DNA from: Patescibacteria group bacterium
GTDB lineage: Bacteria > Patescibacteriota > Patescibacteriia > UBA9934 > GWF2-40-263
Length of the DNA stretch: 64,000 bases
Assembly: GCA_018814025.1 (NCBI GenBank)
Contig: JAHJAM010000025.1
Location: forward strand, 2,530-66,529
Direction of reading: 5' to 3'
The notes under the pieces were generated by a model. It did no database searches, had not been told where the DNA came from, and saw nothing but the letters and a program-made list of their open reading frames with translations. The position numbers and the translations under genes are program-made. Every line of letters begins with the position of its first letter. Position 1 is the stretch's first letter. Of the stretch, positions 1,273-63,746 are shown piece after piece.

Positions 1273-2979
1273 ATGTACGTCTGGGAACAAGCGCAGAAGC
1301 AAATCAGCCAAGAATTGAAGAAACATTTGGGCCAGAAGTTTGCCGTGTCAGCGTCTGATTTATTGACGCCGCCCAATCCGAAAATGGGGCATTTGGCTTT
1401 CGTGTGTTTCGCCGCGGCCAAGAGTTTGAAGCGGAACCCTCAAGAATTGGCCGCGGAGCTGGTTTTGAAAATTAAGACCGAAGGCTTGATTCAAGCCGTG
1501 GAGGCGCAAGGGCCGTATTTGAATTTCTTTTTGGATTTGCAGAATTTTGGGGCAGCGGTTTTGAGCGAAATATTGAAAGAGGGCAAGCAGTATGGACGCA
1601 ATGCCACCGGTCAAAAGAAAAAAGTGATGGTGGAGTATGCCAATCCCAACACGCACAAGGATGTGCACGTGGGGCATTTGCGGAATTTCGTGGTCGGGCA
1701 AGTAGCCGTGAATTTATTGAACGAAAACGGCTATCAAACCATTCCGGTTTCTTATATTAATGATTTAGGCGCGAATGTGGCCGCGTGTTTGTGGGGTATT
1801 AAGAATTTATCTAAAGGGAAAGAGCCGAAGAAGCAGGATCAAATGCAGTTTTTAAGCCGGATGTACGTGAAAGCCACGGCTCAAATGCAAGCGGATCCAA
1901 AAGTTAAAGAGGCAGTGTCAAAGATCCATTTGGAATTGGAAGAACAGAAAGGCGAATATCTTAATTTGTGGAAAAAGACGCATAAGTGGTCGGAAGATTA
2001 CTTAAAATCCGTGTTTGCTGATTTTAATTTGCCGATTCAGAAGTATTATTGGGAAAGCGATTTGATTGCGGACACAAAAAAGGCCGTTCAGGAGCTATTA
2101 AAGAAGAAGATTGCCAAAAAGAGCCAAGGGGCAATTATCGTGGATTTGGAAAAGCAGAATTTAGGCGTGGACTTGCTGGTTAAATCCGATGGCGCGCTGC
2201 TTTATAACGCTAAAGACATTGCGCTGGCCGTGAAAAAGAAAAAGGATTATCAGGCAGAGCAAAGTATTTACGTAATTGATGCGCGGCAGTCGTTGGCCAT
2301 GAAACAATTGTTCGCGGTTTTAGCCAAGATGAAATTCAAGCAAGACTTGCGGCACTTGGCTTATGATTTTGTGACTCTGCCGGAGGGAGCCATGTCTTCG
2401 CGCAAGGGCACGGTGATCCGCTATGAGGATTTTCGCGATGAAGTGACGGCTTTGGCCAGGAAGGAAACCAAGAAACGGCACAAGGGCTGGAGCGCCAAGA
2501 AATTAGATCAGACCGCGCGTTCGATCGCTTTGGCGGCCATCCGTTTTTCCATGCTCAAGCAGGATTTGAACAAAGTGATTGTTTTTGATCCCCAAGAAGC
2601 CTTGGCTTTTGACGGTTATTCCGGACCTTATCTTTTGTATACTTATGCGCGGATCAATAGCATTTTGAAAAAGGCGGGCCAAGCTTCTGGCCAACCTAAA
2701 GGCGATGATTTGCAAGAAACCGTGGAGCGGGAATTGGTGATGCTGCTGGCTCAATATCCGTCCGTGGTGCGGGAAGCCGGGGAAACATTGCAGTTATCGC
2801 AATTGGTGCATTACGCCTTCGACTTGTCGAAGAAGTTTGCGGAATATTATGAGCGGGTGCCGGTGGCGCAGGCCGAGCCGGAAGTGCGGGCCACGCGTTT
2901 GGCCACGGTCAAATCCGTGCAGCAAGTACTGGCCAACGTTTTGACCTTGCTGTCGATTGAACCGGTTAAAGAGATGTAA
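1273..2979 (+). CDS. argS: arginyl-tRNA synthetase
   Basis: 'NPNTHKDVHVGHLRN' HIGH motif typical of ArgRS. DALR anticodon-binding-like C-terminus. 568 aa. Confidence 0.92.
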   Translation: MYVWEQAQKQISQELKKHLGQKFAVSASDLLTPPNPKMGHLAFVCFAAAKSLKRNPQELAAELVLKIKTEGLIQAVEAQGPYLNFFLDLQNFGAAVLSEILKEGKQYGRNATGQKKKVMVEYANPNTHKDVHVGHLRNFVVGQVAVNLLNENGYQTIPVSYINDLGANVAACLWGIKNLSKGKEPKKQDQMQFLSRMYVKATAQMQADPKVKEAVSKIHLELEEQKGEYLNLWKKTHKWSEDYLKSVFADFNLPIQKYYWESDLIADTKKAVQELLKKKIAKKSQGAIIVDLEKQNLGVDLLVKSDGALLYNAKDIALAVKKKKDYQAEQSIYVIDARQSLAMKQLFAVLAKMKFKQDLRHLAYDFVTLPEGAMSSRKGTVIRYEDFRDEVTALARKETKKRHKGWSAKKLDQTARSIALAAIRFSMLKQDLNKVIVFDPQEALAFDGYSGPYLLYTYARINSILKKAGQASGQPKGDDLQETVERELVMLLAQYPSVVREAGETLQLSQLVHYAFDLSKKFAEYYERVPVAQAEPEVRATRLATVKSVQQVLANVLTLLSIEPVKEM

Positions 2980-2989
2980 AAAGAATTAA

Positions 2990-3020
2990 AAAGAGCCTCG
3001 CGGGTGCGGGGCTCTTTGAG
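2990..3020. terminator. GC-rich hairpin followed by a T-run, between convergent argS and the radical-SAM-like gene
   Basis: AGAGCCTCGCGGGTGCGGGGCTCT stem-loop followed by TTGAGTTTG. Confidence 0.5.
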
Positions 3021-3033
3021 TTTGCAGACCAGT

Positions 3034-4218
3034 TTAGGTCTTGGGGTTGAGGGGGAAATCGCGACTGTGGAGCAAGTCATGCTCCCAATCGGTTTGGCAG
3101 TCGCAGGTGATGGTGTAGCCGTTGCCGAACACGCCAGGGTTCAGGGTTTGGCGCCAGGCCGTGATTTGACTCAGGAGCCGGTGGTCGCAATGACCGCAGT
3201 TGCGAGGCCAATCGATCGGTCGAGGAATTTCATCATCCCAGCGGCCGAGCATGACCGGACCCAGATGAGCGGTTTGTTTCAAGACCTCGATGATGGTCCA
3301 GAGCCAGGGCGGCCGGAAGCCGTTTTCCCGGTTCCAAGCAACCATTTGCGGAGTGCCGGGCGAGATGTACAGAGCTTGGAGCAACACTTCATCAACACCC
3401 GCGCCGAAGACGTAGCTGATGGATTCGATGCATTGGTCCAAAGCGTAACCTTCGCCCATGACCAAGTGCGGTTTGAGCATCAGATAGACCGAGACTCGAC
3501 CGCCGAGGTCTTTGACTAGGCGGACGCTTTTTTCAAAAGACCGTTTGCCAATACCTTTGTGCATCAACTTGTTGCGGACGTGGTCGTTTTCGGTTTCGAA
3601 GCCGATAGCGATGTCGAGCGTTTTTCTGTTAGTAGCCAGATTATCGACCAAGGGACCAACCAGTTCTGGGGTGATGTAGGGCAAGCGTGATTCAATGCGC
3701 ACGGTTTGCGCTTGGCTTTGCTCGCCGACACGGCGGATCATCTCTAGCTGGGCATCCTGCGGAATTTCTCCGGGGTTCAGGAAAGAACCGGCCGTAAAAA
3801 TGTTGATGATGTCCACGGATTCGCGCATGGTGGCGAAACCGGCTTGGAAAATGGACAGGAATTCCTGCTCGCCGATCGGTAAGTCGCCGACATATTCGTC
3901 GACCGCCTGCTGGAAGGGGCAAAAGCTGCAACCATGGTGCTTGTTCAGGGCCCAAGCGCAGCCGCCGGGCAAATACATGAAGCCATGGGTGCCGACCCGC
4001 GAGAGTTGCGGAATATATCGAGTGTCAGTGAAGTAAACGATCTCGCCGGCCATTTGGTTGAGCAGCCGGCGAGCTTTCTCAGCTGCTAACAGATTGCGGC
4101 TGAGGCTGCCCAATAAGGACATCAAATGCGTGGGCAATTCCCGGTTCCAGAATTTTCGATGAAAAATTCGGGGTTTGTTCGGGACATTGGCCCGCACCCC
4201 CCGATTGTACGGTGCCAT
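3034..4218 (-). CDS. putative Fe-S / radical-SAM-superfamily-like enzyme with a non-canonical Cys cluster
   Basis: Long ORF. Most plausible start is ATG 4218-4216 (MAPYNRG...) with GGAGA RBS. Cys cluster 'CAWALNKHHGCSFC' (Cx9Cx2C), plus a C-terminal Cys-rich region 'NCGHCDH...CDC'. 'GFETEND' glycine-rich segment. Confidence 0.55.
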   Translation of the reverse strand: MAPYNRGVRANVPNKPRIFHRKFWNRELPTHLMSLLGSLSRNLLAAEKARRLLNQMAGEIVYFTDTRYIPQLSRVGTHGFMYLPGGCAWALNKHHGCSFCPFQQAVDEYVGDLPIGEQEFLSIFQAGFATMRESVDIINIFTAGSFLNPGEIPQDAQLEMIRRVGEQSQAQTVRIESRLPYITPELVGPLVDNLATNRKTLDIAIGFETENDHVRNKLMHKGIGKRSFEKSVRLVKDLGGRVSVYLMLKPHLVMGEGYALDQCIESISYVFGAGVDEVLLQALYISPGTPQMVAWNRENGFRPPWLWTIIEVLKQTAHLGPVMLGRWDDEIPRPIDWPRNCGHCDHRLLSQITAWRQTLNPGVFGNGYTITCDCQTDWEHDLLHSRDFPLNPKT

Positions 4219-8155: not shown

Positions 8156-8204
8156 AAATGACGCAGGAAGCGTATCAAAAATATTCTAATATTTCAAGGG
8201 TTGA

Positions 8205-22166: not shown

Positions 22167-25100
22167 ATGAAATTGTTCCAAAGCAAAACCAGGAAGCTGT
22201 TCGCCGGGTTTTTTGCGTTTGGCCTCACCTTGTCGATTGTCTCGGCGGGCATTTTCAGTTTGGTTCAGCCGGCCTGGGCGCAAGATGTCCTGAGCACCGG
22301 GCAAGCGGCTTTGGAAGCCACCAGCAGCCAAACGCCGACCGCGGGGACATCCGTCAGCGCGGGAAATCCGGCCGAGGGTCCGGCCAAAGCCTTGGGGACC
22401 GTGAATCAAAACGTGATTAAGCCATCGATTCAAATGGTTTTGGTCTCGGTTTTGTTAAATTCTTTCCAATTCCTGCTCGACCGGTTGGCCTATGAAGCGG
22501 CCGTGGCCATCGCGTCATTAGGCGCCGGGGAAACGCCGTTAATCGTTCAAAAAGAAGGCCAGGATTTGTGGGCGGATATCGGCATGGACGTGGCCGGGGA
22601 GTTTGTGGGCGGCTTGAGCGACATGAGCACGGATTTCGTGGGGTTTAATCTTTGCGCGCCGCCCAATCCTTTAGTGCGTATGAGCATTCAATTGGGCATC
22701 AAGCAAGCTTATCAGCCGCCGGAGCCGAAATGCGATATTTTGAAAGTCGGCCAAAACTGGGAAGGGTTTATTAACTCAGCCATTCAGTTATCAGACAATC
22801 CGGGCGACGCGATCATTGAAGAATTTGCCAAATCCTTGAAGCCGGGCCGGAATGAGCTGAGCGCTTCGGTGGAGATTATGCTGGAGGCCGAACACCGAAT
22901 TGATTTGGCTAAAGCCACCGGGTTTCAGCAAGCTTTAGCCGGCGACGGTTTTAAGTCAGTGACTGATTTCGTGACCGGTCAAGTGACCACGCCTTCCAGC
23001 GTGTTGCAGAAGCAATTTGAAAAAACCACCATCGAGGATCGCGATAAGGCCGCGGCCTTTCACATGCAGACCCTGATCACCAATCCGGATTATCTTTGGG
23101 CCATGCTGTTTAACACCATGAGCATTTTTACCAACACTTTGCTGTCGGAATCGCTCAATCGGATTTATACCGGCATGTTCGAAGCTTCGCCGGAGATCGA
23201 TCCTTTCAACGTTGAATATATTTCTAACAATAACCGCCAATCAGCCATTGACCGTTTTTCCAGCTACTCCTCAACTCAACCAACTTCAATTACCAATTAC
23301 AACATCATCGCCGAGTTCGTGACTTGCCCTTCGGGCGGAGTGGCGATTCCCAACATTAATAACTGCGTGATGGACGCGAATTTCGCGACCGCGGTTTCGC
23401 GCGCGGCTTCAAAGAATCCCATGACCGTTCAAGAGGCGATTGACGAAGGGCTTTTGCATGGCGATTGGCCGCTGGTCAGTCCGGATGATCGGACCAAAAA
23501 TGAAAATTCGCTGTGTTATACCTTCGGCTATTGTTATGGCAATTTAGTGAAATTGCGCAAAGCCCGGATTATCCCGGTGGGGTGGGAATTGGCGGCCAAG
23601 CGCAGCCAGCAGGGCGCGCCCGCGACTTTGCAGGAAGTGGTTGACGGTTTTGACCACTGCAACAGCCAAGGCACGATCGATAGCAGTTCAAATCGTTTTT
23701 GCCATTTGATTGATCCGAACTGGGTTTTGAAATATCCGGAAACTCAATGCCGGGCTTTTGTCAGCGGCGAACAGATTATCAGCGGCTACAGTTCGGGCCG
23801 GGCCAATACCTGCGTGGATATGCCCAGCTGCATTTCCGAAAATAATGACGGCAGCTGCGATGGCGGCTTCGGCTACTGCGTGCGCGAGAAGAATATTTGG
23901 CGTTTCCGCGGCGATGAATGTCCGGTGCAATACGCCAGCTGTTTGAAGTTTACCAACGCGGATACCAAATCGCAAAAGAGTTTATTGGTGAACACGGTTG
24001 ATTTTGGCGTGTGCGGCCAAGGCAACGCGGGCTGTTTGTGGTATCGCACGAATAAATATATCGATGACAAGGGCAATACGGACCCTTCGGACGATACTTA
24101 CGAATTTTTGCCGGCCGGGGTCAGCTACATGACGGTCGCGCGCGACGCCGCGGTTGAATACGCGGGCTCAACCCGAACCTTTGGCTATTACGCGCACGAG
24201 GATCGGATTTATTTTGACCGGGACGCGGAAGAATGTGCGTCTCAAGACGCTGGTTGTACCAAGCTATATAAAATTGCTGATAATTTAGTTTTGAATGCGG
24301 TTGCAAATGGAAGTTTTGAACAAGATGAGAATAATGACGGGGTGCCGGATGGCTGGATTGGCTTGGAAGCCACGGATCGCGAGAGTGATACTGATGAAGT
24401 TCAGACCGGCGAATATGCCTTGCATATTCATAATGAACCAAACGTGTTTAGCCAGTCCGGCATTCAATTGGCACCGAATACTTTTTATACTTTCAGCCTT
24501 TATGCCAAGCAGGGGAGTGCGGGGGCAACAGCGGCGAATGCTAAGATCAGGATTTATGACGCGTTTGGCGGCTTGATTGATCTGACCGGCTTGTCCACGA
24601 CTTGTACGGTGCAAAGCAATTACTTCCGTTTAGAGTTGCTAAACTTGAACAATGATTATTCTCGTTATGAATGTTCTTTTACTACGCCGGGCACGACCGC
24701 GGCCGCGTCATTAGAAATTGATCCGTTTAACCGAGCCCGTTTCGACGCTATTCAAATCGAGAAAGGCGCGGTGGCGTCCAATTTTGCGGATGGCTATAAT
24801 CGCGAGGGCGCGACCGCTTATCTGAAATTGGCGCCGGACTATTTGGGATGCGAAGGCAAAGCCACGGATCCCCAAGCCTGCGAGCAATATACCCAAGTTT
24901 GTACCGAACAAGAGGTGGGTTGTAATTTGTACACGCCCAAGGGCGGCGGACCGGCGATTCCGGCCATCATCAGCGCGGTGGATGCGTGTCCGGCCGAATG
25001 CGTGGGCTACGCGGCTTTTAAGCAAGAAGCCACCAAATATGAGCTGGCCTTTTTCCCGGAATATTTTATCGCGGACACGGCCGCCAGCTGTACGGCCGAG

Positions 25101-28100
25101 CAAGTGGGCTGCGACAGCTTCACGAATTTGGATGCTTTGGACCAAGGCGGAGAGGGAATTGAATATTATTCCGATTTGCGGGCTTGTTTGACGCCGGCGG
25201 ACGCGGGCGACAATACGGGCGCGGACCGGGCCGCTAATTATTTCACTTGGGAAGGCACGGATCAGGCCGGCTATCAGCTGCGTTCCTGGTGGCTTTTGCA
25301 ATCAAACCTGAGCGATGCGCCATGTTCGAATTGGACCATGAGCGGCGCCTCCTCCTTAATATGTAACGACAGCGGGTCAGGGCTGGCGGCTTGCGACAGC
25401 CATGACGATTTGGTGAACAATCCGGATTGCCGCGAGTTTTTCGATGAAAACGGAGTCCGCCATTATCGCGAATATTCCAAGACCGTTACCATTAGCGAGG
25501 ATTGCCACCCATACCGCAAGACCATTGCCTTGCGCGACGACTGTTTGGCTTCCGACGGCTATTACACCCCGGCCGGCGAGTGCCGGTACTTTGGCGTGCC
25601 TGTGGAAAGCCAGAGCTGTTCGGCTTCGGCGGTCGGCTGTCGATCATATACGGGCGGGGCCGCGCGCAATCAAAGCGTGGTTTTCGATGATAATCTTGAG
25701 AGCGGCACCGTGGCCAATTACATGACGGAAAACGGCATCAACATTGCTTTTAGCAATGAGTCGCTGGCGCCGGACGGACATTCTTTGCGCGTTTATAATG
25801 CCAGCGGCACGGAATTTATCGCCACTACTCAGGCGATTATGACCAGCGAATGCGCGACCGCGGGCGGCTGTGCCAATCAAAATAGCGAGATGAACGGCGA
25901 GTGCGTGATTGCACAAGGAGAAATTGATTGCGGTCCGCTGCGCGACAAAATCGCGGCCGGCAAGACATTTAATTTGGAATTTTTAGCCAAAGGCAATGGC
26001 GCCATCAAGGCCGCTTTAATCGAACACGGCGGCGCGGATGACCTGCATTATTTCGGCGAAGCGCAACTGACCGGCGCTTGGCGGCTTTACACGCTTGGTC
26101 CATTGGATACCAGCGATTTGGATTACATTGATCGGACCACGGTTTTAGGTTTTCAAACCAGCGGAGCCACGGAATTTTTCTTGGATAATATCCGCCTGAC
26201 GCAAGCTGAAGATAACATTACTTTGATTAAAGATTCTTGGGTGACGCCCGCGGCTTGCGATCAAACGCCCAACGGCCTGAGTTCGCCGCAGTATTACCTG
26301 GGCTGCCAGGAATATTCGGATGTCACCAACCGTCCCAATTATCTTTATCAGTTCAGCCGCTTGTGCGGGGAAGATAAGGTCGGCTGCGAGGCTTATTATC
26401 AAACTTACAATTCGCAATCGCCTTACGGCCAAGTCAATAATGCGCGCTGTTTGAATGGCGCGGCGCCGAATGGCTCGCCGGTCGGCGCTTTGACCGCCTG
26501 CCAGTTTAACGGCCGGACCGTGTGTTCGATTGCGCCCGGAACCAATTTCTGTTTGTTCAATTTAGATCAAGCCATTAGCCGGCCTTTGCCCGCCAAGATC
26601 GTTTTGGGTCCGGAAGCCAAACTGGTTTCCGGGGATCGGCCGGTCTATTTGATTGATGACGGTTCAACTTCGTGTTCGGCGGCCAATGTTGGCTGTACGG
26701 AAATCGGCCAGCCCACGTTTAATCGCGACAAAACTCAAGTCACGGGTTTTGAATCCGCCTATTTCATGAATAATCCGGATGAGTATGAAAATACTCTTTG
26801 CGCCCACAAGGCTTTATTCTGTGCTGAGTGGTCATCGACCAAAGACGGCAATTTCTACTTCAAAGATCCGCTGGATCAAACTTGTGAATACAAGACCGGC
26901 ATCACCATCGATCGGCGCGAGTTTTTTGGCTGGTTCCGTAAAGGCAGCAATGAGCCGTGCGATTGGAATGATTTGAACCAGGACGGCGCCTACCATCCGG
27001 CGGATGATTCAGCTTTAATCAAGGAAGGCGGCAAATTTGAAGTTTGGCGCAATGGCGACAGCCAGTATTCGGGCTGGGTCGCGCAATGCGATCAGAATAT
27101 GGATTTGTGCACGGAATTTTTAGACCCGACCGATTCGCAAGAAGGGCGAAACCCGCTGGGCACGTCCTATTATTTCAAAAACAACGACGCTTTAAGCGAA
27201 AGCTCTCTGGCCGCGACTCAGCGCTGCGACGGCTTAGTCAGCCAGAAGCAGGGTTGCGTGCTGTTCCACAATTCCAGCATTTCCGACATGTATTATTCGG
27301 CCGAGCCCAGCTACATTGCTTCCGAACGCGCGGATATCTTGTTCGGGGACGCACAATTTGCCAAGGTTGATCCGATTGATTGCACCAATTACGATCCGAA
27401 CGAAAATCGGCTGGGGAAAAACCTATGCGAGCTGCGCTGCGCTTACCGCACGGGCGGCTTGGCTAATCCGCTCAAGACCTTGGCGACCACGGCTTCAACC
27501 GCTGATGCGAACCTGCTGTATTCAGGCGCTTGCGTGGATAATTCCGATTGCCCAAGCCAAGTGGCGGCCAACGGCTTGACTTACGCGGGCAACTGCGTGA
27601 GCGTGGAGCCGGCGGCACGCTTTACCAATAACACTAATGCCATTGTGAAAGTGGTGCGCGATCGCGCTTGCGCCCAGTGGCTGACGTGCGAATCAAAGAG
27701 CGTGACTTTTGATGACCAGCAGCAGAAGTGGGTGGAGGTGTGCGAGAATTTGGAGCTGTGCTCGCGCTATACCCGGGAAGGGGACACCACCGAGTGCACG
27801 GCCGCGGATCAGCCTGAACCGTATGTGCTGGATGCGCTGTACTATGCGGCCCGCGACGTAACTTGGACCGGGGTGGAATATTCCGGCTACTCGATTCCGG
27901 ATCAGCTGCCCGTGGATCTTTATGACCAGGTGGATTTGAATCCCAGCAAGTGGTGCGTCAGTACCGCTTCGGGGCGGCCTTACCGCGATGAGCAAACTGA
28001 TTTAGGCGTGCCTTGCACCAGTGATGACGGTTGCGATTATCTGGCCGCGGCCGGCGACTATTATTGCAGTCCGGCCAACGAACAGTATTATGTTTTGGCC

Positions 28101-31100
28101 AATGTGGCCGGGCCGTGCACGGAAGATTACAACACGGCTTGTACCGTGGGCTTTTGTGAGGATCATCCGAATATTGCCTGCGGCAATTCCAGCCATTGTC
28201 CCGATAATGGCGAGATCTGCGTGGTGGGCTATTGCCAGGACGTATATTTGGCGATTGGCTGTGATACGAACACGCAGTGCAACGGCGTTTCCGGCGGCCG
28301 AAACATCTGCGATCCGGTGGCGCGCAAGTGCGTGAATCAATTGACAACCGGCGAAAACGCCACGGCTTGCCGCAGTGCCGGCGACTGTACGGGCATCAAT
28401 CCGACCTGCACGCCCAGCGCCTTATCTCGAGTCGGCACCTGTTTTAATCAGCAGTGCTTGCTGGATATCAAAGGCCAGCCTTACAGTGCGAAACAGGACA
28501 AGGTGATTAACCCGGAGTGCCGCGGCTATCCGGAAATCGATTCGCCGTTTTCCGGTATCCCGGGCACGGTGGTGACCAAATATACGACCAAACCACCACC
28601 GACCGATTTCCTGCCGCAAGCTCAGGAGAAAAAAGTCGGCTACGGCCAAGTGAATATTTGCGCGCCGATTCAAACCGCGGCCGGGGTTTGGGCTTATACT
28701 TCTGATTGTTTGTGCAGTTATGAAAAGATGACTTACGGCGACGGGATCAAAACCTTTTATTATCCCAAAGGCACGGATCTGGATAATTTAGAAGGCGTGT
28801 GCGTGGGCGGACAATTCGACAGCTATACTTGCGCCAAGGATTCCGAATGCGGGTGCGCACGCGACAGCAGCTGCGAGGGGAATGAAATTAGCCTGGGCAT
28901 CTGCGCGCTGCCTAAGAAAAAAGAAACTTATCAAGGCTGGACCGGCCATTGCATTGAACGGGATTCGTCCACGCATATTTATGTGGAACAAGAAAAGAAC
29001 GCGTGTTTAACTTGGCTGCCCGTGGATCGGCTGACCGGGGCCACTGATTTGTACGGAAAAGATTTGGAAGCCGGACAATTCATCAATCAAGACGTTTTCT
29101 ATTGTTCCGAAACCGGCTATTACATGGATTTGTATCCGACCGGCACGGTTTTTGATGATTACAGTAATATTGTGGGCATTGATTATGCTTGCGCGTCGTC
29201 AATAGACGCTCCGGGAAATTTTCAGTGTGAGCAGGGCGAACGGGATAGTTGTGAAAAAAATGCTTACTGTCCGGCAGGCTGGGTGGCGCTGGTGGGTGTT
29301 TGCCATGGAAGTAGCAAGACGGAGACCAGTTTAGGGTATTGTACGGCGGATGTGTTGAATGAAAATTCAGACCTCCGAACCAAAATGCCGATTCAGGCCG
29401 CTGATCTGGCCTTGCCGCCGCTGGCACCGAATCTTAATGATTGTCCATATTTTTGCGTGCCAAAAAACAGTTATCATTCCGAGGGCAATGATGTCGGAAC
29501 GGCCTGCTTCGGTTCCGGACAGCTTTCAACAACTAATGTGGACGGCACTTCGGTTTTTGCCACCCCTTATTATCTGAACGATAACTTAGGAGTCGCGAAC
29601 GGCGAATCGTTTGCCAGCAGTACGGGCGCCTTCAAGAAATATTCCGACTGCGTGGTGCGCGGCGTGCCGGTGGGAACGAGCGAATACGAAACAGACTGGT
29701 ATTATAATTCCAGTTTTGAAGACGAAAATAGCGGATGGTATAAGGGGTATGGCTGGAAGCGCAATACTGATCTCAGTCCGGGCGAAATTGCGGTAGATTT
29801 CGGTCTCGGGCACGCCGCTTATGGTATTTTGCATCGGGCCGTGGGCGCCGGATATAAACATTGCGAAAGTTTAGGACAGGCTTGCACGACCGATGCTCAA
29901 TGTTTGGGTAATTATTCGACGGCGTTTGGTCCGGGCGGCATTCCGTCCAGTTTGACTGGCGCAACACTTCTGGCGTTTGAGGCGTTTTTGAATCAAGTTG
30001 CCCCATTTGTCGGCCAGTGCGGAACTTACGGCGGACCCGAGACGACCAGCGGATCGATTCGGCCTTATTACGGCTGTTATGAACTGACCCAAGTTTCTCA
30101 AGAAGTGACTACGGGTGCGGCCTTGGCGGAAAGCAACAAAGCCTGGACCAATCGTTTGTGGCAGAGCGCGGATCCGCTTTATCAAACCAAGACCAATATG
30201 CCCCAATGGACCGGTTCGGCTACCCAACCTTTGGAATATACGGTGCTGGATGCTCCCGCACCGGCCGGACAGGCTTTGTTTGCGGATTATTTCCAGCGCG
30301 ACGGGCTGACCAATAGATATCTCATGCGGGATTTTGCCGATGCTTTCCCCTTGCCGGTGCGGACTGATTTGGGCGGTTTTGCCATCGGTACAGTGGGTTT
30401 GGATATCAAAGCCGGCATTACGGACGCGGAAGCTTACAAATATCCGAGTTTGAATCAGTATAAAACCGGAGCCAGCAGTACGGCTTTGAAATCCGGGCAC
30501 ACGCCATACAGCTTAGCGCTCTCTTATGAAGACTTGGGAAATGGTTCTGAACTATCCGCGGTTTCAGGGGACATCGCTTTAGACCAGTATGGCCGTTTTG
30601 GAAACAGCAATAGTACGGAGGTAGGCGTCAGTCCGGATCCGGACGGGCAACAAAGCGTGCGCCGTTTGTTATCACAATTTTTTGCAAAAACATATGCGGT
30701 TTATCAATATGTTTGGAATGACAACCGCGGCACGTATGTGAAACAGCCGGACGCGGCCGGGGAGCAGTACGAATCAATGGATATTTCCAGCCAGGGCGAT
30801 GCTTTGGGCACAGAGTTTAATCAATATTCCGGCAATGGCGGACAGGTGCCGGTAGTGAAGTCAGTGGGTTCATGCCAAAACGGCTTATGCGCCGAAGGTA
30901 CGTCCGGCACGATGTCGGTCAACGGCATCGACGATGAAGATATTGTGATGAATGGCTATCAAACTTTCCAAGCCACGTTAAGCTTCTTTACCTATGCCCA
31001 GCCCAACCAATTGCCGATCCGCCAGATTATTGTGGATTGGGGAAATGGCACCGAGGAGGGGTCGATGGACACTTGGACGAATTGGCCTTTAACCAGCCAC

Positions 31101-31643
31101 AGCGGTTCTTCGGCCGCGGATAATTATTATAAAAATCATCGCGGCACTGACGGTTATGGCGGGGAAGTTTGGTGCGATGAAGGACGCATGGGGTTTGGCG
31201 GCAGCGGCGAAGCGTGCGAAAGCTCTTACCTGACTTTTGTGAATTCTTACCGATGTACCCCAACCATACTGACGGAATTGGATACAGCCGGGCGCGTGTG
31301 CCGGTTCCTAACTTTGCCAAACGGCGAGCGGAGATTGGAATATTCGCCGTGTATTGATCAGGGCTTGCAGGCTTGCGGCTTCCAGCCGCGCGTGTATGTG
31401 AAGGATAACTGGGGCTGGTGCACGGGGTATTGTACGAGTAATCCGGATGAGACACCGCTGGATGGTATTGATAATCCACCTGATTCAACTAATCAATGTT
31501 ATGGAAGTGAGTGTGATTTTGTGAGCTGTCCGAGTACGGGGCTGGGTGGTACTCCAACGTCAGATGTGTGCCCTGATGGTGAGTTTAGCGGTATAGATGA
31601 TCCATGGATATATTTTGACGGAGTGATTAAAATTCAGCCGTAG
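22167..31643 (+). CDS. giant secreted cysteine-rich surface protein (3158 aa) with two CBM4/9-like jelly-roll domains
   Basis: Uninterrupted 9.5-kb ORF. Signal peptide 'FAFGLTLSIVSAGIFSLVQPAWAQD'. More than 150 Cys. 'NAVANGSFEQDENNDGVPDGW...FDAIQIEKG' (nt ~24300-24780). 'FDDNLESGT...FFLDNIRLTQAE' (nt ~25690-26210). Confidence 0.9.
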   Translation: MKLFQSKTRKLFAGFFAFGLTLSIVSAGIFSLVQPAWAQDVLSTGQAALEATSSQTPTAGTSVSAGNPAEGPAKALGTVNQNVIKPSIQMVLVSVLLNSFQFLLDRLAYEAAVAIASLGAGETPLIVQKEGQDLWADIGMDVAGEFVGGLSDMSTDFVGFNLCAPPNPLVRMSIQLGIKQAYQPPEPKCDILKVGQNWEGFINSAIQLSDNPGDAIIEEFAKSLKPGRNELSASVEIMLEAEHRIDLAKATGFQQALAGDGFKSVTDFVTGQVTTPSSVLQKQFEKTTIEDRDKAAAFHMQTLITNPDYLWAMLFNTMSIFTNTLLSESLNRIYTGMFEASPEIDPFNVEYISNNNRQSAIDRFSSYSSTQPTSITNYNIIAEFVTCPSGGVAIPNINNCVMDANFATAVSRAASKNPMTVQEAIDEGLLHGDWPLVSPDDRTKNENSLCYTFGYCYGNLVKLRKARIIPVGWELAAKRSQQGAPATLQEVVDGFDHCNSQGTIDSSSNRFCHLIDPNWVLKYPETQCRAFVSGEQIISGYSSGRANTCVDMPSCISENNDGSCDGGFGYCVREKNIWRFRGDECPVQYASCLKFTNADTKSQKSLLVNTVDFGVCGQGNAGCLWYRTNKYIDDKGNTDPSDDTYEFLPAGVSYMTVARDAAVEYAGSTRTFGYYAHEDRIYFDRDAEECASQDAGCTKLYKIADNLVLNAVANGSFEQDENNDGVPDGWIGLEATDRESDTDEVQTGEYALHIHNEPNVFSQSGIQLAPNTFYTFSLYAKQGSAGATAANAKIRIYDAFGGLIDLTGLSTTCTVQSNYFRLELLNLNNDYSRYECSFTTPGTTAAASLEIDPFNRARFDAIQIEKGAVASNFADGYNREGATAYLKLAPDYLGCEGKATDPQACEQYTQVCTEQEVGCNLYTPKGGGPAIPAIISAVDACPAECVGYAAFKQEATKYELAFFPEYFIADTAASCTAEQVGCDSFTNLDALDQGGEGIEYYSDLRACLTPADAGDNTGADRAANYFTWEGTDQAGYQLRSWWLLQSNLSDAPCSNWTMSGASSLICNDSGSGLAACDSHDDLVNNPDCREFFDENGVRHYREYSKTVTISEDCHPYRKTIALRDDCLASDGYYTPAGECRYFGVPVESQSCSASAVGCRSYTGGAARNQSVVFDDNLESGTVANYMTENGINIAFSNESLAPDGHSLRVYNASGTEFIATTQAIMTSECATAGGCANQNSEMNGECVIAQGEIDCGPLRDKIAAGKTFNLEFLAKGNGAIKAALIEHGGADDLHYFGEAQLTGAWRLYTLGPLDTSDLDYIDRTTVLGFQTSGATEFFLDNIRLTQAEDNITLIKDSWVTPAACDQTPNGLSSPQYYLGCQEYSDVTNRPNYLYQFSRLCGEDKVGCEAYYQTYNSQSPYGQVNNARCLNGAAPNGSPVGALTACQFNGRTVCSIAPGTNFCLFNLDQAISRPLPAKIVLGPEAKLVSGDRPVYLIDDGSTSCSAANVGCTEIGQPTFNRDKTQVTGFESAYFMNNPDEYENTLCAHKALFCAEWSSTKDGNFYFKDPLDQTCEYKTGITIDRREFFGWFRKGSNEPCDWNDLNQDGAYHPADDSALIKEGGKFEVWRNGDSQYSGWVAQCDQNMDLCTEFLDPTDSQEGRNPLGTSYYFKNNDALSESSLAATQRCDGLVSQKQGCVLFHNSSISDMYYSAEPSYIASERADILFGDAQFAKVDPIDCTNYDPNENRLGKNLCELRCAYRTGGLANPLKTLATTASTADANLLYSGACVDNSDCPSQVAANGLTYAGNCVSVEPAARFTNNTNAIVKVVRDRACAQWLTCESKSVTFDDQQQKWVEVCENLELCSRYTREGDTTECTAADQPEPYVLDALYYAARDVTWTGVEYSGYSIPDQLPVDLYDQVDLNPSKWCVSTASGRPYRDEQTDLGVPCTSDDGCDYLAAAGDYYCSPANEQYYVLANVAGPCTEDYNTACTVGFCEDHPNIACGNSSHCPDNGEICVVGYCQDVYLAIGCDTNTQCNGVSGGRNICDPVARKCVNQLTTGENATACRSAGDCTGINPTCTPSALSRVGTCFNQQCLLDIKGQPYSAKQDKVINPECRGYPEIDSPFSGIPGTVVTKYTTKPPPTDFLPQAQEKKVGYGQVNICAPIQTAAGVWAYTSDCLCSYEKMTYGDGIKTFYYPKGTDLDNLEGVCVGGQFDSYTCAKDSECGCARDSSCEGNEISLGICALPKKKETYQGWTGHCIERDSSTHIYVEQEKNACLTWLPVDRLTGATDLYGKDLEAGQFINQDVFYCSETGYYMDLYPTGTVFDDYSNIVGIDYACASSIDAPGNFQCEQGERDSCEKNAYCPAGWVALVGVCHGSSKTETSLGYCTADVLNENSDLRTKMPIQAADLALPPLAPNLNDCPYFCVPKNSYHSEGNDVGTACFGSGQLSTTNVDGTSVFATPYYLNDNLGVANGESFASSTGAFKKYSDCVVRGVPVGTSEYETDWYYNSSFEDENSGWYKGYGWKRNTDLSPGEIAVDFGLGHAAYGILHRAVGAGYKHCESLGQACTTDAQCLGNYSTAFGPGGIPSSLTGATLLAFEAFLNQVAPFVGQCGTYGGPETTSGSIRPYYGCYELTQVSQEVTTGAALAESNKAWTNRLWQSADPLYQTKTNMPQWTGSATQPLEYTVLDAPAPAGQALFADYFQRDGLTNRYLMRDFADAFPLPVRTDLGGFAIGTVGLDIKAGITDAEAYKYPSLNQYKTGASSTALKSGHTPYSLALSYEDLGNGSELSAVSGDIALDQYGRFGNSNSTEVGVSPDPDGQQSVRRLLSQFFAKTYAVYQYVWNDNRGTYVKQPDAAGEQYESMDISSQGDALGTEFNQYSGNGGQVPVVKSVGSCQNGLCAEGTSGTMSVNGIDDEDIVMNGYQTFQATLSFFTYAQPNQLPIRQIIVDWGNGTEEGSMDTWTNWPLTSHSGSSAADNYYKNHRGTDGYGGEVWCDEGRMGFGGSGEACESSYLTFVNSYRCTPTILTELDTAGRVCRFLTLPNGERRLEYSPCIDQGLQACGFQPRVYVKDNWGWCTGYCTSNPDETPLDGIDNPPDSTNQCYGSECDFVSCPSTGLGGTPTSDVCPDGEFSGIDDPWIYFDGVIKIQP

Positions 31644-32929: not shown

Positions 32930-32950
32930 TTTCCATCATCCGGCTATGGA
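32930..32950. repeat. REP-like repeat family B (TTCCATCATCCGGCTATGGAA), left flank of the RAYT gene
   Basis: Imperfect palindrome. Reverse-complement copies at 33672-33692 and 33582-33602. Related copy CCATCATCCGGTGATGG at 51012-51028. Confidence 0.8.
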
Positions 32951-32953
32951 AAA

Positions 32954-33565
32954 TTATTTCATAAATTCTTGATAAGATTTTTGATCCATAAATTCTTCGT
33001 CTAGCCATTTAGGATCGACAATGTTATTTGCACCTGAAGAATTTAGAAAGTCAGCGTAGCTGGACCAAGGGTAGTCACGCAGAAATTGGTTTATTTGATC
33101 CCAATTTGTGTGTGGTTTGTTAATGAGTTTCAGTGGATTGCAGTGAATATATTTAGTTAAGTAGATAAGTTGTCTCTCGTTTGTAACTTGTTTGATCTTG
33201 TAGGGCCCCTCAAATAACCTACCCGTTCTCTTGTGTTTTAGGTTGAAATATTTTGTGTATCCGTTACCTAATCGTTGAAAAAAATGTGATATTCCATTGT
33301 CAGAATTTTGTTGGAGTAAGATGTGAAAGTGGTTTGGCATTAAACAGTAACACCGGATGTTGACCAGTTTTGTCCGACATGTGTTTTTATTGTAGCCGTT
33401 ATTTCTAGTTAATGTACATGTTGCTTTGCGATTGATTTGATTAAAGACTGCCATTCCTTTCAAGAATCTTTGATAGTCATTTTTATCGTCAAAGATAATT
33501 CGTTTATCAACTCCGCGATTATAGATGTGACAATATTGTCCATTGTAAAATTCCATTCTTTTCAT
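32954..33565 (-). mobile_element. REP-associated tyrosine transposase (RAYT; IS200-like HuH/Y1 transposase)
   Basis: HuH motif 'CLMPNHFHILLQ'. Catalytic Tyr region 'LIYLTKYIHCNPLK'. About 200 aa. Likely start MKRMEFYNGQ at 33565, but the ORF is open to 33664. Flanked by inverted family-B palindromes. Confidence 0.8.
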
Positions 33566-33671
33566 AAAGAATTCCAAAGCCGGATGATGGAAAATAAAAC
33601 TTCCACCAACTGGTGTTTGGTGGAAGTACACTGATAATATCGCACATTTTTTCATGATTGTCAACTACAAA

Positions 33672-33692
33672 TTCCATAGCCGGATGATGGAA
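33672..33692. repeat. REP-like repeat family B, right flank of RAYT (TTCCATAGCCGGATGATGGAA)
   Basis: Inverted relative to 32930-32950. Near-duplicate 90 nt upstream at 33582-33602 (AATTCCAAAGCCGGATGATGGAAA). Confidence 0.8.
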
Positions 33693-33701
33693 AGTTTGGT
33701 A

Positions 33702-34082
33702 CGATATTTTTGAGGAGTGGCGACTGGTAGCGAGCGAGTGGTGGCTTTATGCCGTCGACTGTTCAAACGGATTCGACTGCATGGAAGGCCATGAGTCGAC
33801 TTTGGCACCAGACCGGTTGGAATGAAGGCGAATTCCATTCCGGGCCGGTGTGCCCGCCCATCCGGGCTAAGCGGTTTCCAAGAAGCCTTTTGGAAAACGC
33901 ATCCGTGGCTACCACGGTTTTTTCGGCCGCCGGGTGGCGTAGCTCAAGCGGAGCTCGACACCCAATCCTCACTGCCGGTGAGTTCTGACTTGTTCGCAAG
34001 TCCGAGCTCGCCGGCTTTTTTGTTGTGTGCTAATATTTTTTTGAGGCCAGACTGTCAGCCCTGAAACGCTACCACTCCTCAA
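33702..34082 (+). ncRNA. candidate structured noncoding element (~380 nt, GC-rich) bounded by inverted repeats; identity unresolved
   Basis: No credible ORF on either strand. Terminal inverted repeats TTGAGGAGTGG..TGGTAGCG (33702-33724) and CGCTACCACTCCTCAA (34066-34082). Internal hairpins (TTCCAAGAAGCCTTTTGGAA; CGTGGCTACCACG). GCCGGC+T6 at ~34008-34020. Confidence 0.3.
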
Positions 34083-34091
34083 CGGTCGCCG

Positions 34092-34124
34092 CTCCTCGTC
34101 TCGATTTCGATCAAACGAGGAGGA
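34092..34124 (+). promoter_or_regulatory. RBS-sequestering hairpin upstream of the small lipoprotein gene
   Basis: CTCCTCGT (34093-34100) pairs with ACGAGGAG (34115-34122), overlapping the SD GAGGAGGA 7 nt before ATG 34129. Confidence 0.5.
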
Positions 34125-34128
34125 TCCA

Positions 34129-34335
34129 ATGAAAACCCAGACACACCAAGTACTACCCGTTTTTTCCGCACTCGCGGTTTGCTTCATCTGCGGGTTTGGT
34201 GGTTGCAGTGCGCCGGAGAAACCGATCCGCGCGCTTTTCCCTGCTTTGAATCGGTCAGCGGGATTGGAAGGCGACGAGCATGACCGAACAGTAGGGTCGG
34301 CTTGGGTCGATTTGGATTCAGGTCTGGTGGTTTAA
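34129..34335 (+). CDS. small putative lipoprotein (68 aa)
   Basis: Strong SD. Signal peptide with Cys-containing lipobox-like 'FGGCSAPE'. Followed by a terminator. Confidence 0.55.
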   Translation: MKTQTHQVLPVFSALAVCFICGFGGCSAPEKPIRALFPALNRSAGLEGDEHDRTVGSAWVDLDSGLVV

Positions 34336-34342
34336 GCCTCAC

Positions 34343-34385
34343 GGCCGGTCGGAGTTCTGCTCCGACCGGCTCTTTTCTTTTGCGT
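34343..34385 (+). terminator. rho-independent terminator
   Basis: CCGGTCGGAG-TTCTG-CTCCGACCGG followed by CTCTTTTCTTTTG. Confidence 0.8.
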
Positions 34386-34430
34386 TTGAATCAGGCAAGA
34401 TATTAGGTATTCAATCTTAATCAAGTCAAT

Positions 34431-35690
34431 ATGATCGATAGCAAACTTATCCAAGAACAGCCGGATTTGGTGGCCGCTAACAATCAAAAGCGGGGAGCCA
34501 AAATTGATATTTCCGCGGCGCAAAATTTGCTATCCGAGCGTTCATCTTTGATTGGTGAGGTTGAGAAATTGCGCGCTCAAGGCAATGAAATTGCGGGCCA
34601 GATCCCCAAAGTAGCGGATGAGGCGCGGGCGGCTTTGGTGGCGGAAGGGAAGAATATTAAGGATCAAGTGAAAGTTAAGGACGAAGAGCTAAACAAAGTC
34701 CAAGCCCAATTGGATGAAGAATTGCACAAATATCCCAATGTTTTGCGCGAAGACGTGCCTGAGGGCTCGGACGAAAGTGCGAATCAAGAAATGCGAAAAA
34801 TCGGCGAGCCACCAAAATTTGAGTTCGAAGTTAAAGATCATTTGGAGTTGGGGGAGAACTTGGGTTTGATCGACGTGGAACGAGCCGCGAAAATTTCCGG
34901 CAGCCGTTTCGCTTACTTCAAGGGCGAATTCGTGCAGCTGGAATTTGCCTTAATTAATTACGTTTTGTCGGTTTTGGTGCCGGAAGGCTTTCGGCCGGTT
35001 TTGCCGCCGCACATCATTTCCACCAAGGCTATGCGCGCCATGGGCTATTTGGATCACGGCGGGGAAGAAGAAGTTTATCACTTAAAAAATGACGACGCGG
35101 TGTTAATCGGCACTTCGGAGCAGGCGGTGGGACCGATGTTCATGGATGAAATGATCGCGGGCGAGGAATTGCCGTTGCGCTTTGTGGCCTTCTCGCCTTG
35201 TTATCGCCGGGAAGCCGGGAGCTACGGTAAGGACGTGCGCGGCATTTTGCGCATGCACCAATTCGACAAGCTGGAAATGTTCAGCTATGTCTTGCCTGAG
35301 CAGTCGGATCAGGAACATGAATTTTTGCTGGCCATGCAAGAGCGGCTTATGCAAGGCTTGAAACTGCCGTATCGGGTGATGAAACTGTCGGCCGGAGATA
35401 CGGGCGCGCCTTCGGCGCGCACTTATGACATTGAAACTTGGATGCCGTCGCAAAATACTTACCGAGAGACTCATTCAACCTCAAATACGACAGATTATCA
35501 GTCGCGCCGTCTAAACACGCGCTACAAAAATGGCAAAGAGAAAGGCTACGTGCATATGTTAAACGGCACGGCTTTCGCGATTGGCCGAATCATGATTGCG
35601 ATTATGGAAAATTATCAACAGGCCGAAGGCAGCATTGAAGTGCCGGATATTTTGCGGCCGTGGCTGGGCAAAGATAAAATTGGAAGTTAA
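34431..35690 (+). CDS. serS: seryl-tRNA synthetase
   Basis: N-terminal coiled-coil arm. Class II motifs ('FRRE...GS', 'GTAFAIGRIMIAIMENYQ'). Confidence 0.93.
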   Translation: MIDSKLIQEQPDLVAANNQKRGAKIDISAAQNLLSERSSLIGEVEKLRAQGNEIAGQIPKVADEARAALVAEGKNIKDQVKVKDEELNKVQAQLDEELHKYPNVLREDVPEGSDESANQEMRKIGEPPKFEFEVKDHLELGENLGLIDVERAAKISGSRFAYFKGEFVQLEFALINYVLSVLVPEGFRPVLPPHIISTKAMRAMGYLDHGGEEEVYHLKNDDAVLIGTSEQAVGPMFMDEMIAGEELPLRFVAFSPCYRREAGSYGKDVRGILRMHQFDKLEMFSYVLPEQSDQEHEFLLAMQERLMQGLKLPYRVMKLSAGDTGAPSARTYDIETWMPSQNTYRETHSTSNTTDYQSRRLNTRYKNGKEKGYVHMLNGTAFAIGRIMIAIMENYQQAEGSIEVPDILRPWLGKDKIGS

Positions 35691-63580: not shown

Positions 63581-63588
63581 TAAGAGAC

Positions 63589-63733
63589 CTCCCCCCGGCC
63601 CCCTCCTTCGTAAGGAGGGGGAGAAACGCGAGGGAATAACCTCCCCCCGGCCCCCTCCTTCGTAAGGAGGGGGAGTCCGAGAGGATGCAGTACGTCCTCC
63701 TCCCCCTTACGAAGGGGGAGGTCGGGAGGGGGT
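63589..63733. repeat. three copies (two direct, one inverted) of a ~36-nt SD/anti-SD-like hairpin element in the pheS-pheT spacer
   Basis: CCTCCCCCCGGCCCCCTCCTTCGTAAGGAGGGGGAG at 63589-63624 and 63649-63684. Inverted copy CTCCTCCCCCTTACGAAGGGGGAGGTCGGGAGGGGGTC at 63695-63733. Confidence 0.85.
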
Positions 63734-63746
63734 CTTGAAAAGTATT

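Follow-up and report, generated by a model that had tools for sequence, protein, structure and literature searches.

The subject of this analysis is a stretch of 64 kb (64,000 nucleotides; hereafter the window) from a Patescibacteria metagenome-assembled genome, described as Uhrbacteria-like, and within it a gap of 465 nt between a Y1 transposase gene of the RAYT/IS200-like type and an open reading frame (ORF) of 68 codons, which is followed by the seryl-tRNA synthetase gene serS. The gap carries a structured noncoding RNA of about 310 nt, referred to as unit 1, and the leader of the 68-codon ORF, which together with the ORF and its terminator is referred to as unit 2 (Table 1). The seryl-tRNA synthetase (SerRS) of the window is identical to the protein encoded on contig JAHJJE010000042 of assembly GCA_018822945.1, and its best named relatives belong to Candidatus Uhrbacteria. 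The 5' end of unit 1 is complementary to the leader of unit 2, and the two may form a switch at the Shine-Dalgarno (SD) sequence of the small ORF.

Table 1. Features of the RNA locus in the window (positions without a locus name) and at related loci (named L).
Feature	Position	Strand	Details
RAYT island	32931-33692	-	37% GC; gene flanked by REP hairpins TTCCAWAGCCGGATGATGGAA
RAYT/IS200-like Y1 transposase gene	32954-33655	-	Pfam Y1_Tnp
Promoter-like motif P1	33697-33711	+	TGGTACGAT (extended -10 type) and 6 nt before GAGG
Unit 1, structured noncoding RNA	33712-34022	+	~310 nt; identified by fold z, lack of an Rfam match and covariation
5' block	33710-33747	+	A1 33711-26, A2 33736-44; SD-mimicking GAGGAG seed
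Hc, three-tier hairpin	33804-33854	+	outer GGCAC:GUGCC, 3-nt bulge, middle ACCGGU:GCCGGU, 1-nt G bulge on 3' side, inner UGGAAUG:CAUUCCG, 11-nt loop AAGGCGAAUUC
Hd, short hairpin	33856-33867	+	GCCC-AUCC-GGGC; version in L027 12 nt longer
He, hairpin	33871-33900	+	apical GCCUU 33885-89; two to three compensatory pairs
Hf, hairpin and U6	33903-33923	+	CCGUGG-CUA-CCACGG, then U6; terminator-like match
Hg, variable hairpin	33932-33963	+	32 nt, against 17 nt in L027
Closing helix P1, 3' strand	33966-33970	+	UCCUC, pairs with 5'-terminal GAGGA 33712-16
T1, intrinsic-terminator-like hairpin	33974-34021	+	18 bp (33974-34015), UUCG loop, then U6; pair probability 1.00
Promoter-like motif P2	34028-34042	+	TGCTAATAT and 6 nt before GAGG
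TGNTANNNT-N6-GAGG sites	33697-33715, 34028-34046; L027 998-1016, 1297-1315; L004 10-28		
Unit 2 leader	34043-34128	+	B1 34067-82 CGCUACCACUCCUCAA, B2 34083-98 CGGUCGCCGCUCCUCG, SD GAGGAGGA 34117-24
SD-sequestering hairpin	34092-99:34115-22	+	inner GAU-UUCG-AUC
68-codon ORF	34129-34335	+	rare small-protein family, motif CGFGGC[SRQK]AP
GCCUC and terminator T2	34336-34383	+	GCCUC 34336-40; T2 34343-71, U-rich tail
serS	34431-35690		downstream of 68-codon ORF
RNA homolog	L027 1013-1295		
Small-protein family loci	34129-34335; L004 114-323; L009 607-867; L015 ~2966-3120; L027 1395-1604; L030 2915-3112; L036 ~1888-2073; L037 ~898-1161		
Upstream regions of sigma-70-linked subfamily	L030 2680-2914; L036 1660-1890; L037 760-897		

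A structured noncoding RNA upstream of the 68-codon ORF

Folding of the 430-nt noncoding region gives -195.9 kcal/mol for the plus strand (z = -7.9 relative to 100 shuffles), which is more stable than the minus strand (z = -5.9), and the 315-nt core alone reaches z = -6.9 (100 shuffles). Among 128 segments of the same size across the 64 kb (mean z -0.86, standard deviation (sd) 1.8), the element has the second-lowest z, and only a segment containing a tRNA-Ser gene is lower. The codon log-odds of five ORFs (57-80 aa) that lie across 33665-34187 are in the off-frame range, at -0.19 to -0.25, compared with a mean of +0.49 and a 5th percentile of +0.19 for real 80-codon chunks of this genome; for the three long ORFs tested, there is no above-threshold match in Pfam. 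A preliminary description of the locus had reported no plausible coding sequence here, and these scores bear it out. Almost all of the sequence features that it listed are present, including several hairpins and a GCCGGC+T6 run, which proves to be the 3' side of the UUCG-loop hairpin T1 and the U6 that follows. Its term “GC-rich” is right in direction, as the RNA lies above the mean of the window, but the difference is modest (58.5% versus 51.4%) and the main contrast is with the adjoining RAYT island; its element of ~380 nt is indeed structured and noncoding, with the functional RNA covering ~310 nt of it.

The most conserved part of the RNA is the 5' block, with 33/36 positions identical in L027, a locus of a second species. 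The 5'-terminal GAGGA pairs with the UCCUC strand of closing helix P1 at a probability of 0.97 in the window and 0.99 (7 bp) in L027, and this helix, which has no covariation because its sequence is invariant, ends three nucleotides before T1. At the same place L027 has an 11-bp GC-rich hairpin followed by UCUUUCUUUU. Enclosed by the closing helix are a 5' domain that varies and five hairpins, Hc to Hg; the two sequences do not single out a conserved fold for the variable region (33748-33799). Hc is built in the same way in both species, with an outer stem of 4-5 bp, a 3-nt bulge on the 5' side, a middle stem of 5-6 bp, a single bulged G on the 3' side and an 11-nt loop that is conserved as AAGGCNAANNC. 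By direct reading of the sequences, both species have AAGGC in this loop and its complement, GCCUU, at the He apex. A kissing-loop contact between Hc and He is possible, and it is unproven because both sides are invariant. The hairpin of Hf, its GCUAC loop and its U6 are all kept in L027, with one compensatory change from U-A to C-G; the loop resembles box B1 of the downstream leader, and Hf-U6 may cause an internal pause or act as a weak terminator.

Relatives and covariation

Relatives of the locus were reached by two routes. SerRS homologs led to L004 (SerRS 83% identical), which has the leader, a 69-codon ORF, a terminator and serS; as its contig starts exactly at the U-tail of T1, that contig does not show the RNA. 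Word search finds hardly any neighbours of the small protein; a profile (hidden Markov model) search of the small-ORF family in 1.84 billion representatives led via the full-length protein P0129 to L027, L028 and L029, three short contigs of a second Patescibacteria species that carry the whole cassette and then serS. A locus search with the small-ORF alignment yields a single distant locus, L015, which lies beside tyrS and lacks the RNA. The cassette is absent in relatives at ~70% SerRS identity. Exact-pattern searches gave five chance matches for an 18-mer of the leader in a genome contig collection, no matches for a 21-mer of the 5' block in a metagenome contig collection, and chance matches only for 16-mers in a viral contig collection. 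The loci of other subfamilies of the small protein (L009, L015 and L030-L037) have different upstream leaders, and none matches the structure model. Three species share the position of the element, ahead of the small ORF and serS, and the known members of the family are so far confined to a small clade of Uhrbacteria-like Patescibacteria.

Two full RNA sequences, those of the window and L027, can thus be compared, and L004 adds one leader. Conservation is highest in the first 36 nt of the RNA (92% identity between the window and L027) and in boxes B1 and B2 of the leader, where 25/25 bases of L027 are identical (the window segment is 28 nt). Identity is 78% for the start motif and likewise for the SD hairpin, 67% for the ORF, 66% for the core from Hc to Hf, 59% for the 3' strand of closing helix P1 plus T1, 54% for the variable region V1, and 47% for Hg.

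The structure of the RNA is conserved by compensatory change. In a manual comparison of nine shared helices with 52 pairs, 35 pairs are unchanged, 12 are compensatory, 4 are changed on one side and 1 is broken. Changes on both sides affect six of the seven pairs of the inner stem of Hc, one pair of its middle stem and, in a manual alignment, two of the outer five pairs of Hg. A covariance model built from the window alone (33800-33925) matches L027 1090-1226 end to end with 47.4 bits (E ~1e-10), compared with 22.1 bits for a sequence-only model. In the alignment derived from the model, 98.7% of cells are paired and 11 pairs are changed on both sides; in the controls, this number is 0-2 when partners are slid by 1-3 columns, and the shuffles give 0/500. 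RNAalifold independently predicts the shared helices. The compensatory changes indicate selection on RNA pairing, and the RNA has, on two sequences, the conserved domain supported by covariation that is expected of riboswitches in general.

Comparison with known RNA families

Known RNA families were searched with Rfam 15, a test that covers RNase P, tmRNA, SRP, 6S, T-box, FMN and other riboswitches, HEARO, ROOL, GOLLD and raiA. At the gathering score only five tRNAs are found in the window and nothing on the element; at E<=10 there is nothing relevant on 33500-34500 or 33695-34030, the sub-threshold chance matches being below 21 bits, and the homolog loci also have no matches. ARAGORN finds no tmRNA. 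A match to a known Rfam family was one result that the preliminary description had named as speaking against its reading, and it was searched for without success; in the same way, its failure to find signatures of tmRNA, RNase P, SRP, T-box or FMN agrees with both programs. Enrichment of GGA as in CsrB and the repeats TCGAC/CGACUG are not significant after multiple testing, and no structured noncoding RNA specific to Patescibacteria turned up in Rfam or in the full-text literature searches made. We are highly confident that the element is a conserved structured RNA of an undescribed family.

By eye, three motifs recall tmRNA, RNase P, SRP or T-box RNAs (GGAUUCGAC, UCCGGGC and GGGUGGC), and these are rejected, as they lie in the wrong context and L027 retains none of them. 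The T-box leaders deserve separate mention, since the element lies upstream of serS, a terminator comes after GGGUGGC, and the tRNA-Ser genes of the window have a G73 discriminator that UGGC would fit. However, there is no match to a T-box model, GGGUGGC (GGGAAGC in L027) is not conserved and sits in a stand-alone hairpin (33932-63) that neither overlaps nor competes with T1, and serS is separated from the element by an ORF that has a conserved terminator of its own, T2, in the window, L004 and L028.

Two putative transcription units

The two units begin with the same composite motif, TGNTANNNT-N6-GAGG (TGnTAnnnT-N6-GAGG), which occurs only at 33697 and 34028 in the 64 kb (0.14 occurrences expected) and, among 37 loci, only at the equivalent sites of L027-L029 and L004. 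Promoter-like motif P1 reads TGATAATAT-TTTCTT-GAGGAG in L027. Promoter-like motif P2 reads TGATAAGAT in L004 and TGTTAAGCT in L027, and the N6-GAGG spacing is present in each; TG, TA, T and the spacing are thus kept in three species, while the next 20 nt vary. The composite looks like an extended -10 element with a transcription start at GAGG. Elsewhere in the window, a sequence upstream of tRNA-Val (TATTAGAATATTTTT, 8177-8191, minus strand) is similar to these start motifs in its -10 and AT-rich spacer, and an arrangement TTGAAA/C-N17-TACNCT lies upstream of both tRNA-Val and tRNA-Leu.

The units also end in a similar way. In unit 2, GAGGC at the 5' end pairs with GCCUC 34336-40 in the minimum-energy folds of the window, L028 and L004, and T2 shows compensatory double changes in L004 and L027; the ORF and the terminator of its own that had been noted at the outset are both present and conserved. 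In each of the two predicted transcripts, the 5' GAGG pairs with a CCUC 2-4 nt before its own terminator. T1 resembles the undoubted terminator T2: their 5' halves are identical at 22/24 positions in the window and at 36/38 in L028. The two terminators of one genome resemble each other more closely than they do those of another genome, a pattern suggestive of tandem duplication or gene conversion. Units 1 and 2 therefore look like tandem relatives built from shared promoter and terminator modules; no similarity between them was detected beyond these modules. For unit 1, the promoter-like start motif and the terminator-like hairpin, candidates for the promoter and terminator that a small RNA (sRNA) acting in trans would need, are conserved.

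A predicted switch at the Shine-Dalgarno sequence

B1 and B2 are two tandem CUCCUC boxes in the leader of unit 2. When the leader is folded alone, the 3' part of B2, CUCCUCGU (34092-99), forms a helix with ACGAGGAG (34115-22) that takes up the SD at a pairing probability of ~1.0; this minimum-energy fold is the hairpin occluding the ribosome-binding site that the preliminary description had proposed. Both relatives retain the hairpin: in L004 two of its pairs have become wobble pairs, and in L027 one has gone from G-C to U-A and the apex is rebuilt. B1 is identical in L004 and the window.

The 5' block of unit 1 is complementary to these boxes. TTGAGGAGTGG (33710-20) matches CCACTCCTCAA (34072-82) at 11/11 positions, and GACTGGTAGCG (33722-32) matches CGCTACCACTC (34067-77) at 10/11. 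When both strands of the 64 kb are ranked by energy, the leader at 34061-34100 is the best partner for the 5' 37 nt (-54.1 kcal/mol; next best -46.5, mean -23.4, sd 5.8). These repeats had been described as closing the element; their complementarity is real, but the 3' arm lies beyond the terminator and a promoter-like motif, in the next unit, and in place of one partner the 5' block has three alternatives, namely the internal UCCUC, B1 and B2. Pairing with B2 joins 33711-26 to 34083-98 by 16 bp including three G-U; pairing with B1 takes in 16 nt with a 7-nt bulge, which is the register first proposed, or proceeds via A2. A1:B2 and A2:B1 form both in the full-length fold and in a two-molecule cofold. 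With the 5' block present, in cis or in trans, the predicted pairing probability of the SD falls from 1.0 to 0.16-0.38, at a net ddG of about -18 kcal/mol, and the prediction for L028 is similar (about -19 kcal/mol). The complementarity to an SD-sequestering strand that is typical of activating sRNAs is thus present, as a thermodynamic prediction.

Both pairing partners are conserved. A change of U33726 to C in L027 converts a U-G pair with B2 to C-G, and the three transitions in B2 of L004 would all keep pairing with an unchanged A1; these compatible substitutions count for little, because both blocks are nearly invariant.

From these predictions, the following mechanism can be proposed. The RNA of ~310 nt would be transcribed independently, starting at GAGG downstream of the extended -10-like motif, and would be closed by GAGGA with UCCUC just before its own intrinsic terminator. 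Its first ~35 nt would serve as an SD look-alike, complementary to B1 and B2 in the leader of the adjacent unit, where B2, left alone, would hide the SD of the 68-codon ORF. Binding of the 5' block to B1/B2 would prevent the SD hairpin and switch translation on (an anti-anti-SD or anti-antisense switch). This pairing would most likely take place in trans between transcripts made side by side, and could also take place in cis where transcription continues past T1. The multi-helix body from Hc to Hg probably decides whether the seed is locked in closing helix P1, as it would be in the free RNA, or available, and may gate it by binding a factor or ligand. That the 5' block frees the SD of the neighbouring ORF, with the RNA acting in trans as a separate sRNA, is the reading we prefer, tentatively and at a little under an even chance.

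Several observations weigh against it. Both promoters and T1 are sequence predictions, and a generic sigma-70 scan did not call promoter-like motifs P1 or P2. Only two full RNA sequences and one leader can be compared, and the covariation alignment was fitted to the proposed structure, which favours that structure; the interaction of A1 with B1 or B2 has no true double covariation, as the pairing blocks are almost invariant, and the registers A1:B2, A2:B1 and A1:B1 are indistinguishable. A change of U33742 to C in L027 makes a C-A mismatch in the A2:B1 helix, and in L028 three central bases of the SD are predicted to stay paired after the switch. Lastly, a 35-nt seed and a terminator would suffice for such a regulator, which leaves the conserved body of 250 nt unexplained.

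Alternative explanations

The foremost alternative, which we regard as a possibility of clearly lower probability, is that the region is one long cis-acting leader of the riboswitch or sensor type, transcribed from 33712 through T1 into the ORF. The body would then be an aptamer, T1 and Hf-U6 would be attenuators, and the 5' block would pick B1 or B2 within the same molecule. The fold of the read-through transcript fits this explanation, since in it a helix of 29 bp (A1:B2 plus A2:B1) closes the domain and leaves the SD free; two hairpin-plus-U6 elements stand in series, the element is directly upstream of the ORF in three species, and its size and multi-stem junction are aptamer-like. However, T1 is a strong hairpin in both species without a conserved alternative antiterminator (the candidate hairpin CUCAC:GUGAG has only 3 bp in L027), promoter-like motif P2 is conserved in three species between T1 and B1, the regulated gene hints at no ligand, and the known riboswitches do not match. 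The conserved T1 and P2 motif between the RNA and the leader favour a separate sRNA over one riboswitch leader. Of the large riboswitch or leader that the preliminary description had envisaged, the regulatory-RNA part is supported, now also by covariation, while a single riboswitch closed by its terminal repeats becomes less likely given the intervening terminator and start motif.

It is unlikely that the RNA has another primary job, such as that of a protein-binding or housekeeping RNA, with its complementarity to the leader being secondary, for example a stalk at which read-through precursors are processed (such as an RNase III site) or a by-product of tandem duplication. Such a by-product would be in line with the start motif, GAGG:CCUC pairing and near-identical terminator halves that the units share, and a conserved body of 250 nt with a conserved loop exceeds what an antisense seed needs. 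On the other hand, the most conserved segments are exactly the two pairing partners, B2 overlaps the anti-SD strand, no gene for an RNA-binding protein is linked, and an element known in three species only is too narrowly distributed for a housekeeping role.

We consider it very improbable that the element is mobile, either as a miniature inverted-repeat transposable element (MITE) or a repetitive extragenic palindromic (REP)-type element, or as cargo of the RAYT, with its terminal inverted repeats serving as transposition ends. This explanation, also raised in the preliminary description, draws on the 16-nt inverted repeat at the ends of the element and on the RAYT island, whose last REP hairpin ends 19 nt upstream of the RNA. 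The 21-nt REP hairpin of the island has an inverted copy at 32931-51 and direct copies at 33572-92 and 33672-92, and a degenerate fourth copy lies at 51010-30; its sequence is unrelated to the RNA element. The dispersed identical copies that a MITE should have are not found by blastn of the element against the 64 kb, where only the unrelated REP is repeated, and by exact look-up the RAYT protein is single-copy on record. The GC content is 37% in the island compared with 58% in the element, the supposed 3' arm is conserved as part of the ORF leader, and compensatory substitutions point to selection on RNA pairing. L027 and L028 hold the cassette at the same position, upstream of the small ORF and serS as in all three species, with no RAYT and with a homolog of the 190-aa lipoprotein gene of the window directly upstream; the RAYT island thus looks like a recent insertion beside the RNA gene, and the mobile-element explanation is rejected.

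Least credible of all is a protein-coding gene or decayed pseudogene, for which there are 78-80-aa ORFs in three frames and the thought that unit 1 may descend from a duplicate of unit 2, and which is rejected on the codon scores and Pfam results given above and because the length differences from L027 do not preserve the frame and the substitutions track base pairs and not codons.

Two further observations concern the surroundings of the locus. Between pheS and pheT, at 63585-63735, there are three GC-rich palindromic units CCTCCCCCCGGCCCCCTCCTTCGTAAGGAGGGGGAG, two direct and one inverted (fold z ~ -6.7), which represent another type of REP-like repeat and are not related to the repeats around the RAYT. 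Upstream of the locus, 22167-31643 is a single ORF of 3158 aa with a signal-peptide-like N-terminus.

The small-protein family downstream of the RNA

The 68-codon ORF belongs to a rare family of small proteins defined by the motif [CLM]G[FY]GGC[SRQK]AP..P, present 1-3 times per protein in ~15 cluster representatives of the 1.84 billion. Its homologs are P0121, P0123, P0129 and about a dozen cluster representatives, and the family has no Pfam match. The ORF is probably translated, since its start, SD and stop are conserved and its indels, including those relative to L004, are in multiples of three; its codon usage is atypical (score -0.11). The serine of the motif is encoded by AGT in the window and by TCG or TCC in distant homologs. 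The repeated motif cores could suggest a modified-peptide precursor.

The preliminary description had called the product a lipoprotein, a label that is not supported. By eye, the window protein fits a PROSITE-style lipobox rule, but it is the only member with a signal-peptide-like N-terminus: the L004 protein has a charged residue in the hydrophobic region, and P0129, P0123, L015 and other homologs have no signal peptide. The cysteine in question is part of the conserved GFGGCxAP motif, which is repeated 1-3 times.

At six distinct loci, the gene of this family has an aminoacyl-tRNA synthetase gene as its neighbour, namely serS in the window, L004, L028 and L009, tyrS in L015 and a class II synthetase gene in L037. 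In L030-L036 the small-protein gene adjoins a sigma-70 gene, and this subfamily has another conserved upstream element, TTTTTATCCACA...TGGCAA, with a leader of 100-200 nt. In L015, an arrangement UCCUCC / GGAGGA / GGAGGAGG could also sequester the SD. Downstream of the family member in L037 and converging on the class II synthetase gene, a GC-rich stretch of ~420 nt (1165-1592; z = -4.3) ends in a terminator-like hairpin and matches neither Rfam nor the model of the window RNA; a further structured RNA associated with the small-protein family may lie here. At L007 (69% SerRS identity), the region upstream of serS (1800-2475) encodes the end of a SPASM-type cysteine-rich protein and a 50-aa peptide ending in ACYCNCGCACYVVPS, and looks like a radical-SAM modified-peptide cluster; in L006, a radical SAM/SPASM gene lies downstream of serS.

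Comparison with known regulatory systems and implications

The closest parallels to the proposed switch are the anti-antisense sRNA activators, such as DsrA, RprA and ArcZ acting on rpoS, RNAIII on hla and GlmZ on glmS. In these systems, as would be the case here, an upstream strand of the leader hides the SD and is displaced by an RNA with its own promoter and terminator, the seed of the regulator being at its 5' end. The present regulator differs in being located immediately upstream on the same strand, in its size of ~310 nt with a conserved multi-helix body, in an SD-mimicking seed locked in its own closing helix, and in having two tandem target boxes; it has no sequence relationship to the known activators, dependence on Hfq can not be assumed in its host from the candidate phyla radiation (CPR), and its action is so far a prediction. 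Translational riboswitches of the anti-anti-SD type share with it a three-strand competition (5' block, B2 and SD), a large upstream domain and a closing helix at the 5' end, but here a conserved terminator and promoter-like motif split the domain from the expression platform, and no Rfam riboswitch matches.

SreA/SreB and EutX/Rli55 are riboswitch-derived or riboswitch-gated sRNAs, and are comparable in that a structured, sensor-like RNA ended by a terminator can act on another transcript; they contain a known aptamer class, whereas the fold described here is new and sensing by it is hypothetical. The type I toxin mRNAs of hok/sok also resemble unit 2, as an mRNA for a small ORF with predicted pairing of its 5' and 3' ends (GAGGC:GCCUC), a sequestered SD and a neighbouring RNA complementary to the leader. 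They differ in that pairing is predicted here to open the SD and not to block it, the regulator is not antisense-encoded, and the products of L027, L015 and P0123 are not hydrophobic toxins.

A more far-reaching possibility, which we think rather doubtful as a joint claim, is that the element is the first of a new class of large structured riboregulators of the CPR, in which the body senses a ligand, a protein or a physical signal and gates the SD-mimicking seed, so that the RNA is a trans-acting “riboswitch small RNA” controlling the GFGGCxAP small-protein family adjoining aminoacyl-tRNA synthetase genes. The known range of three species limits the general importance of the element unless more members are found. 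Patescibacteria, or the CPR, are mostly uncultured, and their regulatory RNAs are poorly charted; in this setting the element offers a concrete target, namely a three-way competition for the SD of a neighbouring small ORF. If the proposal is true, it would provide a new RNA family and a compact model of translation control in reduced genomes, together with a handle on the small-protein family that carries the GFGGCxAP motif.

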